64,000 bases of DNA, from sequence record PX880102.1, one strand, 5' to 3'. Of the stretch, positions 13,313 through 50,644 are shown piece by piece. Source of the DNA: a phage. Both the position numbers and the translations under genes were made by a program. The notes below the pieces were generated by a model. The model had not been told where the DNA came from, ran no database searches, and worked only from the letters and a program-made list of their open reading frames with translations. Numbering within the stretch: the stretch's first letter is position 1; each line of letters opens with the position of its first letter.

Positions 13313-14731
13313 TTATGGATAGGTATAGATGATACCAGTTTCTAAAGCAGTTTTATGAATGATGTATCCATTACGTGATTCTTGAACATCAACTTCTGGA
13401 TAGTCTTTCATCATCTTCTGAAGAGTGTAACGATGCAGGTAGTATTTACTATCTGGATCTTCAGTTTTCCAATCTTTACCTTCTTCAGTCATTTTTTGGA
13501 TTTCATCCATAACCCACCAACCGCACCAGATATAAGCCGAAGTACGATGTGGAAGAGGATGAACATAAGGTAATTCACCTTCTGGTTCCGGAGCAACTTT
13601 ATCAGTTACCTGAACTTGACCCGTTGCTTTAACTGTTTTACTATCATAGTCAGTTGCTGTAACGACAGCAGTAACTTCAATAGTTTGACTTCCAATAGAT
13701 GAGGTGTCAACGGTGTATACGTTAGTTGACCCTTCCACAGGAGAAGAATCTTTCTTCCATGAATAAGTAATTTGTGCTGCTTCAGGTGCTCCAGTAACAT
13801 TAGCTGTAAATGTAGCCGAAGCATCTTGCTGAACGTTAATAGAAGGAGGAGTCAATGCAACCTGTGGATTCATTGTCTTCTTATTAACCGTCAGTGACAC
13901 TTCGTTGGAAGTAACTTCCTTTTCATTGTAATTTTCTGCAGTTACTTGCGCTACGCATTTAATTCTTTTTACTCCACTTGTAGTTGGAGTATAGTTAAAT
14001 GTAGAGTTAGTTTCTCCACCAATTTGAGAATCATCTACATACCACTTATATGTAGCAGACGCTCCATCAGGTTGAGAAACCAAGGCAGCAGTAAATTGAA
14101 CTGGGGTTCCAATTACTCCAGCTGAAGGACTATCAGGAGTTACAGCTAAAGTAGTCGCTTGGGTTTTCTTGTTAACAGTCAGTGACACTTCATTAGAAGT
14201 AACGCTCAATGTATCATAATCAGTTGCGGTTACTTGAGCTATGCACTTGATTTTTTTAACTCCGCTTGTGGCAGGAGTGTAATTGAATGTAGCAGAAGTT
14301 GCTTCGCTTACAGGAGAACCGTCAACGTGCCATTGATACGTAGCGTTTGCACCTGATGGCTGTGAAGCTAAGGCAGCAGTAAATTGGACAGCTGTTCCGA
14401 TTACTCCAGCATCAGGGCTATCAGGAGTTACGGCTAATGTAGTTGTCTGTGTTTTATTTTTGACTGTGATAGTTGTCGTAGTTTCTGCTGTTTCAGGTTC
14501 AGATTCTGGAACTGTATTTGTTGCAACGACTTTAATAGTCTTTTGACCGGCAGGTCCTTTTAATACATAATCAAAAGTTGCTTCAGCTCCATCTTGTGGA
14601 ACATCGTCTACAGTCCAAGCATAGGTAATAGTTCCACCTCCAGTTTCACCATTGGGTGTAGCAGTAAACTGCTTAGTTTCATCAATAACCCCTGTTGGTG
14701 TTTTAGGAGTTATATCAACTGTAAAAGCCAT
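13313..14731 (-). CDS. hoc: Hoc outer capsid decoration protein (472 aa) with four tandem Ig-like domains
   Basis: Tandem ~96 aa Ig-like repeats, capsid-binding C-terminus, position as T4 hoc; longer than T4 Hoc (376 aa as recalled). Confidence 0.88.
   Translation of the reverse strand: MAFTVDITPKTPTGVIDETKQFTATPNGETGGGTITYAWTVDDVPQDGAEATFDYVLKGPAGQKTIKVVATNTVPESEPETAETTTTITVKNKTQTTTLAVTPDSPDAGVIGTAVQFTAALASQPSGANATYQWHVDGSPVSEATSATFNYTPATSGVKKIKCIAQVTATDYDTLSVTSNEVSLTVNKKTQATTLAVTPDSPSAGVIGTPVQFTAALVSQPDGASATYKWYVDDSQIGGETNSTFNYTPTTSGVKRIKCVAQVTAENYNEKEVTSNEVSLTVNKKTMNPQVALTPPSINVQQDASATFTANVTGAPEAAQITYSWKKDSSPVEGSTNVYTVDTSSIGSQTIEVTAVVTATDYDSKTVKATGQVQVTDKVAPEPEGELPYVHPLPHRTSAYIWCGWWVMDEIQKMTEEGKDWKTEDPDSKYYLHRYTLQKMMKDYPEVDVQESRNGYIIHKTALETGIIYTYP
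13886..14461 (-). repeat. Tandem in-frame duplication of a 288 bp Ig-like domain unit within hoc
   Basis: Two adjacent 96-codon units (Hoc residues 91-186 and 187-282), ~75 percent identical at protein level with near-identical DNA stretches. Confidence 0.8.
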
Positions 14732-25607: not shown

Positions 25608-25611
25608 CAAT

Positions 25612-25641
25612 GGGGACCGAAAGGTCCCCATATTTTTATTT
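25612..25641 (+). terminator. Rho-independent terminator after gene 54
   Basis: GGGGACC-GAAA-GGTCCCC then ATATTTTTATTT. Confidence 0.8.
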
Positions 25642-25926
25642 ACGGAATGAAATAAAAGCAGCAACTGAAGCAACTAAACTGTCTTCAATATAAACTTCAA
25701 TTTTTACCGGAGCTTCTGACTCAAATTTACCTGTTACTACACCTTGGAAAATGCTTTCAGTCTGTTCTGGCTTTGAAAAATTTTCAGAAGGAAAAATTCC
25801 GAACTTTTTATCTGTTCCAAAAATTTTGATAAATTCATCATAAACTGCTTCATTAAAAGCGTTATCAGCAGGAATAACGCCTTCAACTACAAGTTCTTGA
25901 CCTAAAAAGCGTAAAGAAGATTTCAT
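25636..25926 (-). CDS. Small hypothetical protein (96 aa) downstream of the Alt paralogs
   Basis: ORF with its own early-type promoter and GAGGA ribosome-binding site. Confidence 0.55.
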   Translation of the reverse strand: MKSSLRFLGQELVVEGVIPADNAFNEAVYDEFIKIFGTDKKFGIFPSENFSKPEQTESIFQGVVTGKFESEAPVKIEVYIEDSLVASVAAFISFRK

Positions 25927-25934
25927 TTTGTGTT

Positions 25935-25987
25935 CCTCATGTTATGTCAGTAAGACTACTATAACACAACACGAGGGACTTGTAAAC
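25935..25987 (-). promoter_or_regulatory. Early-type promoter (GTTTAC -35, TATAGT -10) plus leader with GAGGA Shine-Dalgarno; copy A of repeated cassette
   Basis: Minus strand GTTTAC-18 nt-TATAGT, then leader ending in GAGGA before ATG at 25926. Confidence 0.6.
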
Positions 25988-28044
25988 TACATCTTGAACT
26001 TTTTAGACATTCCGTTGATGTTAACCAGAGAAGCCAAGATTTGAGAAACTTCGTTTTCCTCTTCTTTTGATTCTTCTACAAGGAATTGATTAAACCCAGC
26101 CATTGGACGAACTTCACCAGTTTCCATTAGATGATCGCCATCATATACTGATTCTTCTAATTGTTCAGAAGGAGGAACGATTGTGCCTTCGATTAGATAC
26201 TTGTTATAAGCAGTTTCTTTCATCATGTACGTGCTTACTTTATTAATCTTCAACAAAATTCCACGCGGTAGAATAACTTCAGCTTCTGATGGAAATCCTG
26301 ATAAATGACCTGGAACGATAACTTTGATTCGCTCAGCCCCTTTAATTACCATACCTACACTAGTTTCAGCATCTTCATTAGCATATGTAGAATGACTACC
26401 CATATGCATTAAATCTTCGGCATCAACGGAACCTTCTCCTTCACCAGAAAATACTGCACCGGAATCATCTAGAGCCATATAGTTTTTACCATGCTCACCG
26501 AAGATATTTGGTTTAAGCGATGTTGATACGAAGTTCTTGAAATAGAACATTTTATTTTCAATATTATGGCGTAAAGTTTTAAAAGTAACTTCTTGACCAC
26601 GATAAAGCGTAGTTCCCGGAGGAAGAACTGATCCTTTGGCGAATGCAGAATCCATTGTCTCGATGTGTTTAATAGCTCGTTCCATGTATTCTTCACGGGT
26701 AGAATCTGGTTTACCCAAGAGGAACGAGTTCATTTCAACATATGAATCTGCACAATAATCTTCAATTGCATCAGACTCAGCCTGAGTCAGTCCTTTTGGA
26801 GTTACTTCGGTGCTTGCGTATTCATATGCCTGAGCAGCAGATTCATTAATCAATTTATAAATGCCATTCATGACAAATTGAATAATAGCTACCTTTTCGT
26901 CTGGTGTGGCTTTAGAACCTTTAACTAAATCATTGATAATTTTCTTAATAACATCAAAGCTATTAGAAATATTAATGTCAGCGAGATCGCTTAAAATTTT
27001 ATCGGTTTTATAATCAAAGAATTCTTTATTCTTTAAATATTCTTGAGAACCTTGATGTGTTATATCGCTCTGCAGTCTGATAGACGGATCACGTAAACGT
27101 GCATGGGCCAATGCAATATGATTTCGGAAGCTTTCTAGTTCATAATCGTTAGATTTAAAACGAGAAGCACTTCTCATACCACCGATAGCTCCTTTGCCGA
27201 AGTTTGAACCAATCTGAATAACGCCAGAGTTCATTGGTCCTTCTGCTTTATATACCGGAACTTTAGATTCAAACTCTTGATATTTCTTAGCAGCGAAGCT
27301 ATCACCCTGTAGCGAAGCATCGACAGTAGAATATTGAGCTTGTGCTGCTAATCGACGACTAATTTTAGTTTTCTGAATAACAGCTTGATCCGTGCGCTTA
27401 TCATTTTCTAAAGCAATAGAAGCAGCAACAGCAACAGCTTTAGGAACAGCATTACCTGTTTTAACATCTACATAAACATCACCAACCTTTGATTCAACTT
27501 TTGTGAATAACTCAGTTGAAATAGGAGGTACACCTGGAATGTCTTCTAAATTGGCATTTTTACGGTAAACCATAATATATGCATACTTTTTATCGTAATC
27601 CCAGATTTCCTTTAAAAGAACATATCGACCTACTCCTTTAGTACGTACTAAACGGTCAGCAATAACTTGCATTTGACGAGCAGCGCCATTTGTTTTACTC
27701 TTTAGTACGCGGAATAGGCATGCGTCAATTTTATACTGTTTCATTGTTTGAAGAGCAGTATCAAAAACTGCATTAATGACACCAATTGGATTTCCACCCA
27801 AGTTTTTAAGTTTAACTAATGATAGTTTCTCATTAACACCTATCATTACGATATGCATCATTTTATCGCCTGGCTTAACGTTTTTATTTGTATCACCGCC
27901 AGAGGTGTATGTACAAAATCTAAATCCAGGAAGCACGCTTTCTTCACCGGCTTGAATAGCAAAAATTTGAGGTATTTTATGCTTAGGATTTAAGTTAACA
28001 ACCGGCGCCGAAGCGCCGTCAAATAATTCTGTAATAAGTTCCAT
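25987..28044 (-). CDS. Alt-family ADP-ribosyltransferase paralog (685 aa)
   Basis: N-terminus MELITELFD and first ~230 aa closely similar to neighbouring Alt; C-terminal R-S-E motifs YRGQ / FVSTSL / EAEVILPRG. Confidence 0.8.
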   Translation of the reverse strand: MELITELFDGASAPVVNLNPKHKIPQIFAIQAGEESVLPGFRFCTYTSGGDTNKNVKPGDKMMHIVMIGVNEKLSLVKLKNLGGNPIGVINAVFDTALQTMKQYKIDACLFRVLKSKTNGAARQMQVIADRLVRTKGVGRYVLLKEIWDYDKKYAYIMVYRKNANLEDIPGVPPISTELFTKVESKVGDVYVDVKTGNAVPKAVAVAASIALENDKRTDQAVIQKTKISRRLAAQAQYSTVDASLQGDSFAAKKYQEFESKVPVYKAEGPMNSGVIQIGSNFGKGAIGGMRSASRFKSNDYELESFRNHIALAHARLRDPSIRLQSDITHQGSQEYLKNKEFFDYKTDKILSDLADINISNSFDVIKKIINDLVKGSKATPDEKVAIIQFVMNGIYKLINESAAQAYEYASTEVTPKGLTQAESDAIEDYCADSYVEMNSFLLGKPDSTREEYMERAIKHIETMDSAFAKGSVLPPGTTLYRGQEVTFKTLRHNIENKMFYFKNFVSTSLKPNIFGEHGKNYMALDDSGAVFSGEGEGSVDAEDLMHMGSHSTYANEDAETSVGMVIKGAERIKVIVPGHLSGFPSEAEVILPRGILLKINKVSTYMMKETAYNKYLIEGTIVPPSEQLEESVYDGDHLMETGEVRPMAGFNQFLVEESKEEENEVSQILASLVNINGMSKKFKM

Positions 28045-28047
28045 GAT

Positions 28048-30144
28048 TTATCCTTGAACGAACTTGTAAGGCATGTTTGCAATATCTATGCAAGATGCAA
28101 TAATTCCAAGAGATGATTCTACTTTTTGTTTAACATTTGATGAAACAAATGATGCAAAATCAACTCTGTCTTCTATTTCAATATCACCTGTCATTGCAAC
28201 TACTTCACCGGTTTCCATTAAATGGTCTCCGTCATAGATTACCGATTCGGTGAGCTCTTCCGTGGTCATAACTTCAGCTTGAATGAGTTTTGTATTATTA
28301 GATGTTGTTCCGTCATTATTAGAAGCATCAGTTATTTTATTAACTTTGACCATCAATCCACGCGGTAGAATAACTTCAGCTTCTGTTGCTATTCCGAGAC
28401 TTCCTGGATATACAACATTAACTTTATGAGCTCCATCAATTGCCCATCCTATTTGAACTTTAACGTATTCAGGATTTTCTTTATACGCTCTTATTTCGTT
28501 TGGATTAATAGTTATTCCTTCTTCATTTTTATCAACTGTTAATTCATTGCGAGCTTCTGGTTCTAAAAGACCAATACCAGCATGTGTGATTCCAAAACGT
28601 CCAAAAATGATAGGAGTTAAAGAAGTAGATACAAAATTTCTGAAGTAGAACACTTTATTTTTAACTAACGCTTCATATATAGGAGCAGTCATACTTTGAG
28701 CACGATAAACTGTAATGCCTTCTGGTATACGGTCACCATTTTCAAAAGCTGAATCTAAGTTATTTATAGCAGATTCAATTTCTTTTTCACTCATTACATC
28801 ATATCGTTCTGGATTGTAACGACCTAAAAGAAGATTATTGATGTCAGTATATCCTGAACCGCAATATTCTCTAATGCCGCGCTTTTGTGATGGAGTATAT
28901 TTAGAACCATCACGGGCAATAGTAATATCAATCATTGGACCTGCACCAATTCCAGAAAAGCTATAAATCATTCGTTTGAGGAATTTAGTTTTTGCTGCGT
29001 TCCAGGAATTTTTAGTTATTTCTTCCCAGACTTCATCTGGCTGTCCTTTACGTGTTTTATTATGTTTATCAAGCCAATTATCTTTATATTCTTCAAAGAG
29101 TTGATTAACAGCTGCTGCGTATTTTTCTAAACATTTTATTGAAGTAGTTGGTTCATTTTTAATCGCATTAAGAATTACATCTTTAATTTTTTCAGAAACT
29201 TCACCAACCTCACTCATTGGAAAGAATTTATAGTCATAATGAAGTTCATCTGCAGTTCCTTCAGCAATAATTTTTGCTGCCTTAGTTTTAGAAGCCAATG
29301 AATTAATTCCAAGTTTCATTTCTTCCGCTTCGGGAATTAAAGGAGCTGTAGCAGGTTTATTGAAATTAGCTGCGGTAGATTCATACTTCTGGAATAATTC
29401 ACTTTCAAATCTAGAAGATTCCAATGACTGACTTTGTGCAATTGCTCTACGGGAAATTTTAACTTTAACGATTACAGCTTGGTCAGAACGTTTATCGTTT
29501 TCTTGTGCAATAGATGCTGCAATTGCCTCATTTTTAGTTACTTGAGCTCCGGTATCTTTATTGATATAAACATCACCGACCTTCGATTCAACTTTAGTAA
29601 AGAGCTCTGTACTAATTTCCGGAACTCCTGGAATGTCTTCTAATGATACATTTTTGCGATGTATAAGAATATATGCGTACTTTTTATCGTAATCCCAGAG
29701 TTCCTTAAGAAGGACGTATCTGCCACCTGAACGACTACGGATAAGTCTATCAGCAATAAGTTGAATTTGACGAGCTTGACCAGCAGTTTTAGACTTAAGA
29801 ATACGGAGCATACAGGCATCAATTTTATACTGACGCATCGTCTGCATCGCAACAGTAAAAACTGAATTGATGTAATTAATTGGGCTTGGACCGAGACCTT
29901 TTAATTTAGCAATTGAACCTTTAGCAGTTAATGTAAAAGGAACAATATGCATCATTTTATCACCCATTTTTAAATCGCGATTAGTATCACCTCCAGATGT
30001 ATAGGTACATAAACGAAAGCCTGGTTGTTCAATTGCGTCATCAACATGAACTGAAAAAATTTGCGGTATTTTCTTCTTTGGATTTAAGTTTGTAATCGGA
30101 AGAGTAGTATCTTCGTCAAATAATTCTGTAATGAGTTCCATCAT
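28048..30144 (-). CDS. alt: Alt ADP-ribosyltransferase (698 aa), packaged head protein
   Basis: Alt-like sequence with YRAQ / FVSTSL / EAEVILPRG motifs; late promoter and Shine-Dalgarno directly upstream; adjacent to ligase gene. Confidence 0.8.
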   Translation of the reverse strand: MMELITELFDEDTTLPITNLNPKKKIPQIFSVHVDDAIEQPGFRLCTYTSGGDTNRDLKMGDKMMHIVPFTLTAKGSIAKLKGLGPSPINYINSVFTVAMQTMRQYKIDACMLRILKSKTAGQARQIQLIADRLIRSRSGGRYVLLKELWDYDKKYAYILIHRKNVSLEDIPGVPEISTELFTKVESKVGDVYINKDTGAQVTKNEAIAASIAQENDKRSDQAVIVKVKISRRAIAQSQSLESSRFESELFQKYESTAANFNKPATAPLIPEAEEMKLGINSLASKTKAAKIIAEGTADELHYDYKFFPMSEVGEVSEKIKDVILNAIKNEPTTSIKCLEKYAAAVNQLFEEYKDNWLDKHNKTRKGQPDEVWEEITKNSWNAAKTKFLKRMIYSFSGIGAGPMIDITIARDGSKYTPSQKRGIREYCGSGYTDINNLLLGRYNPERYDVMSEKEIESAINNLDSAFENGDRIPEGITVYRAQSMTAPIYEALVKNKVFYFRNFVSTSLTPIIFGRFGITHAGIGLLEPEARNELTVDKNEEGITINPNEIRAYKENPEYVKVQIGWAIDGAHKVNVVYPGSLGIATEAEVILPRGLMVKVNKITDASNNDGTTSNNTKLIQAEVMTTEELTESVIYDGDHLMETGEVVAMTGDIEIEDRVDFASFVSSNVKQKVESSLGIIASCIDIANMPYKFVQG

Positions 30145-40940: not shown

Positions 40941-41290
40941 TTAGAAAGGTCCTGGATGTCTTCTGCGAACTTGTTGAAGGAGTTGTTGATTTGTTTTTCA
41001 ACCAATCCTGGCTTATGAGCCACCACATCCGCCTTCTTTGCGTCTTTGCGCAGTTTTTCATTTTCACGCTCAATAGCAGCAATTGCCTCACGATTTTTAT
41101 TATTCATCGCATCAATATAATTATACTGAATTCGCAAATTATTTAATGCTAAGGCGTTTTCATTGGCTGTTTTTGTAATTTCAGTAACTGATGTTTCTAA
41201 TCTTTCTACCTTATTTTTTAAAATAATAGATGTTCCGCCAAATGCTATTACAAGTAATAGCAATCCAGCTGTAAAATTACTTACATGCAT
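40937..41290 (-). CDS. Inner-membrane spanin-like protein (117 aa)
   Basis: N-terminal transmembrane helix GLLLLVIAFGG then coiled-coil; T4 pseT.3 position. Confidence 0.65.
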   Translation of the reverse strand: MHVSNFTAGLLLLVIAFGGTSIILKNKVERLETSVTEITKTANENALALNNLRIQYNYIDAMNNKNREAIAAIERENEKLRKDAKKADVVAHKPGLVEKQINNSFNKFAEDIQDLSK

Positions 41291-41784
41291 AAAGTTTTAA
41301 TAACCTCTATAATATCGTCTTGAGAAAGACCGTTAATTAAAATATGATGTTCCGCCGGAGATTTAGAAATTTTAAAGCATGCCGCAACATCTTCTGCCAT
41401 ATCCGATGCGCTACGATTTGGATTACTAATTCCAAGACGATGTTTTCCCGTTAAAGGATTAACGATGATATAGCATTTACAGTTGTTAATATGAACATTA
41501 GGTTGAGTCTGATTAATGAACACATCGCAATCATATTTCGCAAGCTGATTTTCTAAAAAGACTTTCATCTCCTCAACTGCATCAGGAAGCATATCACGGG
41601 CTTGCTCAAGACGACGATTTCGATATTCTTTAATGGTCGTTTTCCGCTTGACTTGTTTAGCTAAATCTTTCTTAAGATCGGTGATATATCCAACTCGACG
41701 ATTTCCTTTAAATACAGAAATCCCATCTGTAGTATCACCATATGCTTCAACGACCATCTCAGTAGTAATAAGCTGCAAATCCAT
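41281..41784 (-). CDS. alc: Alc-like protein (167 aa from second Met)
   Basis: 167 aa ORF between spanins and rnlA, as T4 alc; early-type promoter upstream. Confidence 0.65.
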   Translation of the reverse strand: MDLQLITTEMVVEAYGDTTDGISVFKGNRRVGYITDLKKDLAKQVKRKTTIKEYRNRRLEQARDMLPDAVEEMKVFLENQLAKYDCDVFINQTQPNVHINNCKCYIIVNPLTGKHRLGISNPNRSASDMAEDVAACFKISKSPAEHHILINGLSQDDIIEVIKTLCM

Positions 41785-41792
41785 CATAAAGT

Positions 41793-41845
41793 CCTCATGT
41801 TATGTCAGTAAGACTACTGTAACACAACACAAGGGACTTGTAAAC
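41793..41845 (-). promoter_or_regulatory. Early-type promoter plus leader; copy B of repeated cassette, upstream of alc
   Basis: 51 of 53 bp identical to 25935..25987; GTTTAC -35, TACAGT -10, GAGGA Shine-Dalgarno. Confidence 0.6.
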
Positions 41846-41848
41846 AGC

Positions 41849-43436
<1,588 letters not shown>

Positions 43437-50278: not shown

Positions 50279-50644
50279 CTACTTTTTGAAAGTTTTTCGC
50301 AAAAGTTCAATGATTTCGTCTACATTGTTTTCGTCAACAATGCAATGAATTTTTGTTACGCCAGAAACCTTGTCTTTGACTTCATCTTCTTCAGAAGTCG
50401 GTTCTTTATACTCACGAAAACAATGAAATTCGTCTTCGCAAACGTTAAAGTAAAAATGCTTTCCATTTGCGCATTCAATATGTTTTATTACTCTAAATCC
50501 ATCAGCAAAGAAAGCTTCTTTAACTTCAAACCATCCGCCATTTTCTTGAATAATTTTAACTATTGATGAATTAGAACGTGGGCGATAATTAATAAATGTA
50601 TCAATAAGTCTTGGAACAAGTTCATACTTTTTGCCAATATACAT
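50279..50644 (-). CDS. Hypothetical protein (121 aa)
   Basis: ORF in array downstream of gene 32. Confidence 0.5.
   Translation of the reverse strand: MYIGKKYELVPRLIDTFINYRPRSNSSIVKIIQENGGWFEVKEAFFADGFRVIKHIECANGKHFYFNVCEDEFHCFREYKEPTSEEDEVKDKVSGVTKIHCIVDENNVDEIIELLRKTFKK

Follow-up and report, generated by a model that had tools for sequence, protein, structure and literature searches.

T4-type phages have been described as carrying 'mobile regulatory cassettes', the promoter-early stem-loops (PeSLs; Arbiol et al. 2010, PMC2839356; Comeau et al. 2014, PMC4122927), in which an early sigma-70-type promoter is combined with a stem-loop able to overlap the -10 box, and with a Shine-Dalgarno sequence (SD) and start codon on the 3' side. 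They are repeated in the genome and exchanged between loci by recombination in short conserved motifs, and the available text of that work explicitly covers the Tequatrovirus promoters TTTACW-N17-TAYWAT (PMC2839356, PMC4122927) and proposes an attenuator or terminator role for the stem-loops in RB49 and phi1 (PMC2839356). A second kind of element, known from T4 e, soc, 49 and I-TevI and from Aeh1 mobE, is a hairpin with an internal promoter that sequesters the ribosome-binding site (PMC3014915). At the T4 internal-protein (IP) locus, finally, sequences of promoter and leader recur (Repoila et al. 1994, cited in PMC2839356 and PMC4122927). The pair of repeats described here shares features with each of these systems. 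In the available text of the T4 reviews and the PeSL papers, neither the pair before alc and alt.-3 nor an SD-sequestering hairpin at alc is described, although an older description may exist; the CmdTAC paper, with 33 mentions of alt.-3, concerns C-terminal extension mutants of Alt.-3 and not its promoter.

The window, that is, the whole stretch of 64,000 nucleotides analysed here (record PX880102.1), belongs to Tequatrovirus and represents a T4-like phage with ~99% identity to several isolates. Direct computation underlies the account given here of the repeat and where it occurs, of the conservation and covariation of the hairpin that it encodes, and of the different ancestral promoter of alt.-3. 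On the minus strand, 25987..25934 (copy A) and 41845..41792 (copy B) are identical at 52/54 positions; a match of 51/53 had been reported in a preliminary description, which is borne out, with agreement continuing for one further base, the last A of GAGGA. The features of the two sites are as follows.

25934..25987, minus strand: copy A of the cassette (54 bp, -35 hexamer through SD), before the 96-aa alt.-3 homolog; by its probable origin, the derived copy
25982..25987, minus strand: -35 hexamer GTTTAC of copy A
25963..25976, minus strand: main 5' arm of copy A (cassette positions 12-25), within the spacer, holding the anti-SD CCTC
25958..25963, minus strand: -10 hexamer TATAGT of copy A, with TGT before it (extended -10), near the top of the hairpin
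near 25951, minus strand: predicted transcription start of copy A, placed 7 nt past the -10 hexamer
25935..25948, minus strand: main 3' arm of copy A (cassette positions 40-53), holding the SD core GAGG
25934-25938, minus strand: SD GAGGA of copy A
25636..25926, minus strand: 96-aa ORF, homolog of T4 alt.-3, served by copy A
25987..28044, minus strand: downstream alt paralog, 685 aa, upstream of copy A
41792..41845, minus strand: copy B of the cassette (54 bp), flanked by the rnlA stop codon and alc; the ancestral location
41840..41845, minus strand: -35 hexamer GTTTAC of copy B
41821..41834, minus strand: main 5' (anti-SD) arm of copy B (cassette positions 12-25)
41816..41821, minus strand: -10 hexamer TACAGT of copy B
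near 41809, minus strand: predicted transcription start of copy B
41793..41806, minus strand: main 3' arm of copy B (cassette positions 40-53), holding the SD core GAGG
41792-41796, minus strand: SD GAGGA of copy B
41281..41784, minus strand: alc, a gene of host shutoff, 167 aa, the second ATG being taken as the start as in the T4 annotation (the ORF list reaches 41787)
41849..43009, minus strand: rnlA (RNA ligase 1), upstream of copy B

The shared block begins exactly with the -35 hexamer GTTTAC and ends exactly with the SD GAGGA, which sits 7 nt before the ATG in both copies, and outside these 54 bp no relatedness is seen between the copies on either flank. Its promoter consists of GTTTAC, an 18 bp spacer and TATAGT or TACAGT, with TGn upstream of the second hexamer (extended -10). 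The copies disagree at cassette positions 15 (C/T) and 27 (T/C), the latter giving TATAGT in copy A and TACAGT in copy B. A 54-bp match of this kind was found 0 times in 100 dinucleotide shuffles. Early promoters of the window were listed as GTTTAC, 17-18 bp and TAnnnT, and the eight good ones on the minus strand were compared pairwise: copies A and B have 41/42 positions in common outside the hexamers, and the remaining pairs no more than 25/42, or 19-36/54 overall. Many unrelated early promoters might, as the preliminary description allowed, have proved equally alike, and they do not. Its view of the block as a promoter-plus-leader cassette is upheld by the predicted-early-promoter annotation that both sites carry in related records, such as fPS-65, and by the placement of T4 alc and alt.-3 among the early genes in both RNA and protein classes (PMC9697503 and its supplement). 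Like the PeSLs, the cassette has a sigma-70-like promoter of 17-18 bp spacing, a stem-loop, and an SD and start codon on the 3' side. PeSLs also have an AT-rich tract upstream of the -35 hexamer; copy B has a possible counterpart in AAAAATTATAAAAAATTTAT, 15-35 nt away, and copy A has just CTAAAAAGTTCAA, within the alt coding sequence.

Both copies are set tightly behind another gene. Copy A starts at the stop codon of the downstream alt paralog, the final base of TAG being the G of GTTTAC, and copy B starts 3 nt past the rnlA stop codon. Since only 0-3 nt separate these stop codons from the -35 hexamer, and a terminator scan called none between the upstream genes and either cassette, read-through is unavoidable and rnlA transcripts must enter copy B. 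A late-promoter motif precedes the alt paralogs, alt of T4 is a late gene (PMC9697503), and late alt transcripts must run into copy A.

In RNA that reads through from upstream, two helical segments are predicted, one between cassette positions 12-25 and 40-53 and one between 28-31 and 36-39. Together they make a stem of 18 bp that includes three G.U pairs and a 2-nt bulge and, in copy A, is lengthened by two additional pairs (positions 9-10 with 55-56). The anti-SD CCUC occurs six bases past the -35 hexamer, and the SD core GAGG is in the 3' arm. As modelled, the stem would enclose the -10 box, with the -10 hexamer at the stem top, and the predicted start ~7 nt past that hexamer would fall inside the 3' arm. 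In computed folding, the read-through RNA reaches -26.5 kcal/mol (z = -4.1) in copy A and -29.5 kcal/mol (z = -3.9) in copy B, and RNA beginning just after the -10 hexamer, at -4.7 and -4.6 kcal/mol (z about -0.4), is without significant structure. Opening the SD of read-through RNA is computed to cost 11.0 kcal/mol in copy A and 6.0 in copy B, versus 2.8 and 1.9, respectively, for RNA from the cassette's own promoter. An Rfam scan of the whole window returned 0 matches at the gathering score, and a RegB site was rejected on inspection, the Tequatrovirus SD GAGGA being without GGAG.

A stem in this position could be a transcription attenuator or terminator, or could stabilise the 3' end of the upstream RNA, the SD having come to lie in it by accident. 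The available text of Arbiol et al. (2010, PMC2839356) reports a PeSL stem-loop that acted as a terminator in a reporter and stem-loops that commonly overlap the -10 box, and other early promoters of the window have -10-box hairpins that do not include the SD. An intrinsic terminator was nevertheless rejected for both copies: the stem is AU-rich, the sequence next to it (AACACAAAAUG or CUUUAUGAUG) is not a U-tract, and the terminator scan made no call. A U-tract is likewise missing after the stem in every genus considered below, and pairing of the SD core with the spacer in 24/24 cassettes is hardly accidental. We regard attenuation as an unlikely explanation of the hairpin.

It appears rather probable to us that the repeats represent one cassette with a strong sigma-70 early promoter, native to alc and bearing a hairpin that hides the SD in read-through RNA, which was later copied to alt.-3. 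RNA begun at the cassette promoter would start in the 3' arm; as it would be without the 5' arm, its SD is proposed to be free, allowing alc or alt.-3 to be translated immediately after infection. Read-through RNA, originating from rnlA and its neighbours in the case of alc and from late alt in the case of alt.-3, would have both arms, fold, and hide the SD, and its silence would confine translation to the immediate-early period. The start site, the translational block and the route of recombination are what we infer from the computed features. In that upstream-initiated RNA is predicted to place the SD in a helix, and the internal promoter to produce a short translatable RNA without the 5' arm, the cassette resembles the hairpins of e, soc, 49 and I-TevI. 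It is unlike them in having an early sigma-70 internal promoter rather than a late one (TATAAATA, a late-promoter motif found within neither cassette), in gating genes, alc and alt.-3, that are early, and in having its 5' arm in the -35/-10 spacer. The hairpins of e, soc, 49 and I-TevI block early translation of a late function; since the internal promoter of the alc cassette is early, its temporal logic is predicted to be the reverse. It differs from the PeSLs as well, which the available text of that work interprets as sites of recombination and of transcription termination or attenuation, no mention being made there of SD sequestration.

The upstream stop codon lies about 9-12 nt from the base of the stem, where a terminating ribosome could melt the anti-SD and bring about coupled translation, so that the block may be partial. 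Carried to its conclusion, this becomes a separate explanation, in which the SD of a polycistronic RNA opens solely upon termination of a ribosome at the adjacent upstream stop, and the output of alc or alt.-3, instead of being blocked, follows translation of rnlA or alt. In every genus a stop codon occurs 0-4 nt before GTTTAC, with the anti-SD about 9-14 nt past the stop, a distance that the ribosome footprint places within reach of a terminating ribosome. In these dense genomes, however, it is a general feature that a stop codon closely abuts the promoter that follows, and of an 18-bp stem a terminating ribosome would melt no more than the base. The early-protein class of alt.-3 despite late alt also argues against efficient coupling (PMC9697503), and we consider it decidedly unlikely that coupling is the purpose of the arrangement.

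The same pair is present in T4, at 123,040-123,093 (before alt.-3) and 136,283-136,336 (before alc), with 53/54 positions identical. BLAST with the 54-mer found 999 places in 500 phage records, and a longer query specific to alt.-3 found 1001 places in 503 records, in 499 of which a place spanned 80% or more of the query; the sole listed record with one place is a 13-kb partial record. In effect, two copies per genome are carried throughout Tequatrovirus. The duplication predates the radiation of the genus and is an old, fixed feature. Of the "recent recombinational spread" suggested by the preliminary description, recombination therefore stands, as the alt.-3 copy is a replacement from the alc locus (see below), but recency does not, given a pair found in T4 and about 500 Tequatrovirus records with two copies each. 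Identity through spacer and leader, from which spread had been argued, also has a functional reading, since these two segments form the arms of an SD-covering hairpin that is conserved. Nor is there support for the idea that the repeats are substrates for deletion or duplication of the DNA between them: all full-length records examined keep both copies, and no deletions or duplications bounded by them were found in about 500 Tequatrovirus genomes. By homology to the T4 map the interval includes genes 30 (DNA ligase) and 31, both of which are essential in T4. By itself, then, the repeat is ordinary, an old fixed feature of T4 and no source of rearrangement in the genome of the window. Unlike PeSLs, the alc/alt.-3 pair flanks no variable ORFan, and its copies lie 13-16 kb apart round essential genes, with no deletion in about 500 genomes.

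Within Tequatrovirus, 17 distinct versions of the cassette were collected; scans of IMG/VR and of metagenome contigs for extra copies yielded just 7 and 10 stretches, respectively. The stem is paired at 98.4% across the 17 versions. Several substitutions leave it intact, including C15T, which creates a U.G pair and is seen at both loci, G16A, which converts a G.U pair to A-U, and G40A, A46G and C42T. In the alt.-3 copy of two phages (three records, one of them a RefSeq duplicate) C15T is accompanied by G50A, which changes the SD to AAGGA and restores a U-A pair; the path from C15-G50 through U15.G50 to U15-A50 is thereby seen, the change of SD from GAGGA to AAGGA being compensated. Pairs are broken by G16T, G40T and C12A, and G29A, at the cost of one pair, gives the better -10 hexamer TATAAT. 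Covariation within the genus is not significant (52/500; 17 versions), which is attributable to little variation and a small sample.

Copies inside one genome differ at 1-7/54 positions. Most variants are locus-specific, with haplotypes sorting mostly by locus (T11-T15-A16 at alt.-3, C27 mostly at alc), and the divergence of the copies is judged similar to the overall divergence of the genus, so that gene conversion is not needed to explain their similarity. No clear evidence for ongoing gene conversion was found among the Tequatrovirus versions, with one genome having two derived states in both copies. In this genome, of phage vB_ECOLIGBLB0003 (L009 18001-18054 and 33127-33180), A16 and C27 are found in both copies; A16 occurs otherwise at alt.-3 only and C27 almost only at alc, and their joint presence could reflect either a short gene-conversion tract or parallel mutation. 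The pair might also be viewed as the neutral relic of a single ectopic recombination, its copies alike merely through little elapsed time, a view with which both the genus-like divergence of the copies at 1-7/54 positions and the non-significant covariation agree. While this would account for the similarity of the copies, it does not account for an architecture conserved with covariation across genera at alc, and the SD-changing mutation of the alt.-3 copy is compensated; such a relic appears extremely improbable.

Evidence from beyond the genus comes from rnlA-alc junctions taken from annotated phages and IMG/VR. The order GTTTAC, anti-SD arm in the spacer, -10 hexamer and 3' arm ending in the SD is found upstream of alc in Dhakavirus, Gelderlandvirus, Karamvirus, Jiaodavirus, Winklervirus and Kanagawavirus, and also in a Kagamiyamavirus-like contig and two further uncultivated groups; the design thus occurs in at least seven or eight genera besides Tequatrovirus. 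Sequences of the stem vary by group, for example UCUCCAUUUGGUU/AACCAAAUGGAGA, AUCCUCAUCAG/CUGAUGAGGAU and CCUCUCGUUUUUG/CAAAAACGAGAGG. In a set of 24 unique cassettes, 23 from upstream of alc (Tequatro-, Dhaka-, Karam-, Gelderland-, Jiaoda-, Winkler-, Kanagawa- and Kagamiyama-like) and one Tequatrovirus alt.-3 copy, the four-nt SD core is paired with the spacer 3-9 nt past GTTTAC at 4/4 nt in 22 and at 3/4 in 2. An alignment-free test compared native combinations of 5' and 3' halves with between-clade chimeras (n = 422): the natives reach a mean of -20.7 kcal/mol versus -11.2 +/- 3.7 for the chimeras, and most natives fold more stably than any of the chimeras. A covariance model was also built, from Karam-, Gelderland- and Winklervirus only, and used to align 17 distinct non-Tequatrovirus cassettes. 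In this alignment, which is fitted to the model and hence favours structure, a bias of which the chimera test is free, 91.1% of cells are paired, versus 82.2 +/- 1.0 with partners shuffled and 40-46% with partners slid; both sides have changed in 7/17 pairs, and the covariation score is 0.327 versus 0.153 for shuffled partners (0/500). The same model, containing no Tequatrovirus sequences, recovers the Tequatrovirus cassettes with E values of 4e-5 to 0.5 in 400 kb. RNAalifold detected no structure in a MAFFT alignment of the 24 cassettes, a result attributable to stem registers that differ between genera.

Folding energies of the two strands bear on a further explanation, that the palindrome acts as DNA, whether as a protein-binding site, as a cruciform that tunes the promoter, or as a preferred site of recombination. 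Beyond Tequatrovirus the antisense strand folds as well as the sense strand (-21.2 vs -20.8 kcal/mol), because the stems there are nearly all Watson-Crick, and a DNA-level or antisense role is possible in those genera. In the available text of their paper, Arbiol et al. suggest, as a speculation, that PeSL stems are bound by a recognising protein, and show crossovers inside PeSLs (PMC2839356); the present cassette, too, did move between loci. The Tequatrovirus stem, with its 2-5 G.U pairs, nevertheless favours the sense strand (-24.5 vs -15.4 kcal/mol for antisense), and an RNA-level signal, the SD, is always found in one arm, which makes a DNA-level function very improbable as the general explanation. 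Returning to the SD-hiding hairpin, we see an even chance that alc in most T-even-like phages is under an "immediate-early-only" gate, in which placement of the anti-SD in the untranscribed -35/-10 spacer renders all read-through RNA silent, and that Tequatrovirus moved this 54-bp module to alt.-3, behind a late gene.

The design is not universal at alc: Mosigvirus, Gaprivervirus and some others are without it, and the upstream form differs in Gualtarvirus and in Acinetobacter phages. Differing arrangements were noted in Morganella phage Rgz1 (L024), in Gaprivervirus-like loci (L040, L041 and L063) and in Acinetobacter phages (L066-L068). They include a hairpin wholly downstream of the -10 box, by which the SD is covered in every transcript, a GGGG..CCCC terminator-like stem upstream, and a 13-17-bp stem that encloses the -10 box and stops short of the SD.

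The direction of the duplication is indicated by alt.-3 itself. In Dhaka-, Mosig-, Gapriver-, Marfa-, Karam- and Kagamiyamavirus this gene has a different conserved promoter, GTTTACAAC..CCACAAGGATGTGG..TACTAT, with a small hairpin inside the spacer, a leader ending in ...ACATGAGGA, and no SD-sequestering stem; Karam- and Kagamiyamavirus have the alc-type hairpin at alc and this other type of promoter at alt.-3. As the six genera share the different promoter, the Tequatrovirus alt.-3 copy is best seen as a replacement derived from the alc locus, and these sequences are most simply explained if the promoter and leader of alt.-3 gave way to the alc cassette in the Tequatrovirus stem lineage. Old and new upstream sequences of alt.-3 have GTTTACAA (left) and AACATGAGGA (right) in common, and the exchange probably took place by recombination at these short motifs; crossovers there would explain why the repeat ends exactly at functional boundaries. 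In the Tequatrovirus ancestor roughly 36 unique cassette bases would have been swapped in for the older alt.-3 promoter and leader. With respect to the indels, replacements and recombination (mini-circles) ascribed to PeSLs, what we find is the replacement of the alt.-3 promoter in one lineage, and no rearrangement between the copies in about 500 genomes. Similar early promoter and leader segments also stand before unrelated genes in the IP locus, where, in the available text of the PeSL papers, they are thought to mediate shuffling of T-even genes; that locus is described there as a cluster of adjacent variable genes, unlike the two distant, conserved genes that have the present cassette in common.

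Upstream of alc in Mosigvirus (L013 5609-5670, L014 5602-5665) the promoter is without the anti-SD hairpin and has a CACCAAGGATGGTG hairpin in its spacer, like promoters of the alt.-3 type. It is closest to the alt.-3 promoter of the same phages (0.79 vs 0.75 for the next pairs) and may represent a swap in the opposite direction. Concerted evolution of both promoters beyond Tequatrovirus was considered and rejected, the value of 0.79 for the Mosigvirus pair being barely above 0.75.

Should the proposed gate operate, it would constitute a portable T4 device by which the spacer of a promoter silences the downstream gene in all transcripts but its own. It would explain how an immediate-early gene can lie directly behind a middle or late gene in a terminator-poor genome, as well as the conservation of spacer and leader, which are normally free to drift. 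The transfer to alt.-3 offers a concrete, dated case of a regulatory cassette moved between distant loci of the T4 lineage, with its likely junctions visible, and lends support to the PeSL shuffling model in the group's most thoroughly studied member.

Most other early promoters of the window contain an inverted repeat with arms in the -35/-10 spacer and just past the start, so that the -10 box is enclosed. Examples on the minus strand are the promoters at 50279, 38523, 34546, 34938 and 54289, with z = -3.6 to -3.9 for three of them, and these repeats match the PeSL class "stem-loop overlapping -10". Since such hairpins stop short of the SD, the hairpin may have a more general role. At promoter 34938, which serves the homolog of T4 30.8, the stem covers the SD AAGGAG too, and the covariance model of the alc cassette gives a weak match (E about 0.03).

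Several features near copy A and elsewhere in the window were noted in passing. At 25610-25631, in the gap that separates gene 54 on the plus strand from alt.-3 on the minus strand, lies a GC-rich palindrome of 9 bp flanked at each end by T-runs; it looks like a bidirectional terminator, which would stop transcripts of alt and alt.-3. Two full-length alt paralogs stand in tandem on the minus strand (25987-28044, 685 aa, and 28048-30144, 698 aa), with the late-promoter motif before them at 30172-30165. T4 has a single alt and the remnants alt.-1 and alt.-2 (T4 locus L001 3066-3451); the final codons of alt.-2 (..KKFKM*) match the 3' end of the downstream paralog of the window, so that the T4 remnants look like an internally deleted second alt and not only a duplicated first part. 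Finally, a 288-nt tandem repeat of 72% identity at 13875-14450, within an ORF on the minus strand (13313-14731), corresponds to repeated domains of its 472-aa product, which by its sequence may be a Hoc-like protein with Ig-like domains; T4 Hoc is probably shorter than this ORF, which would suggest an extra domain in the protein of the window.
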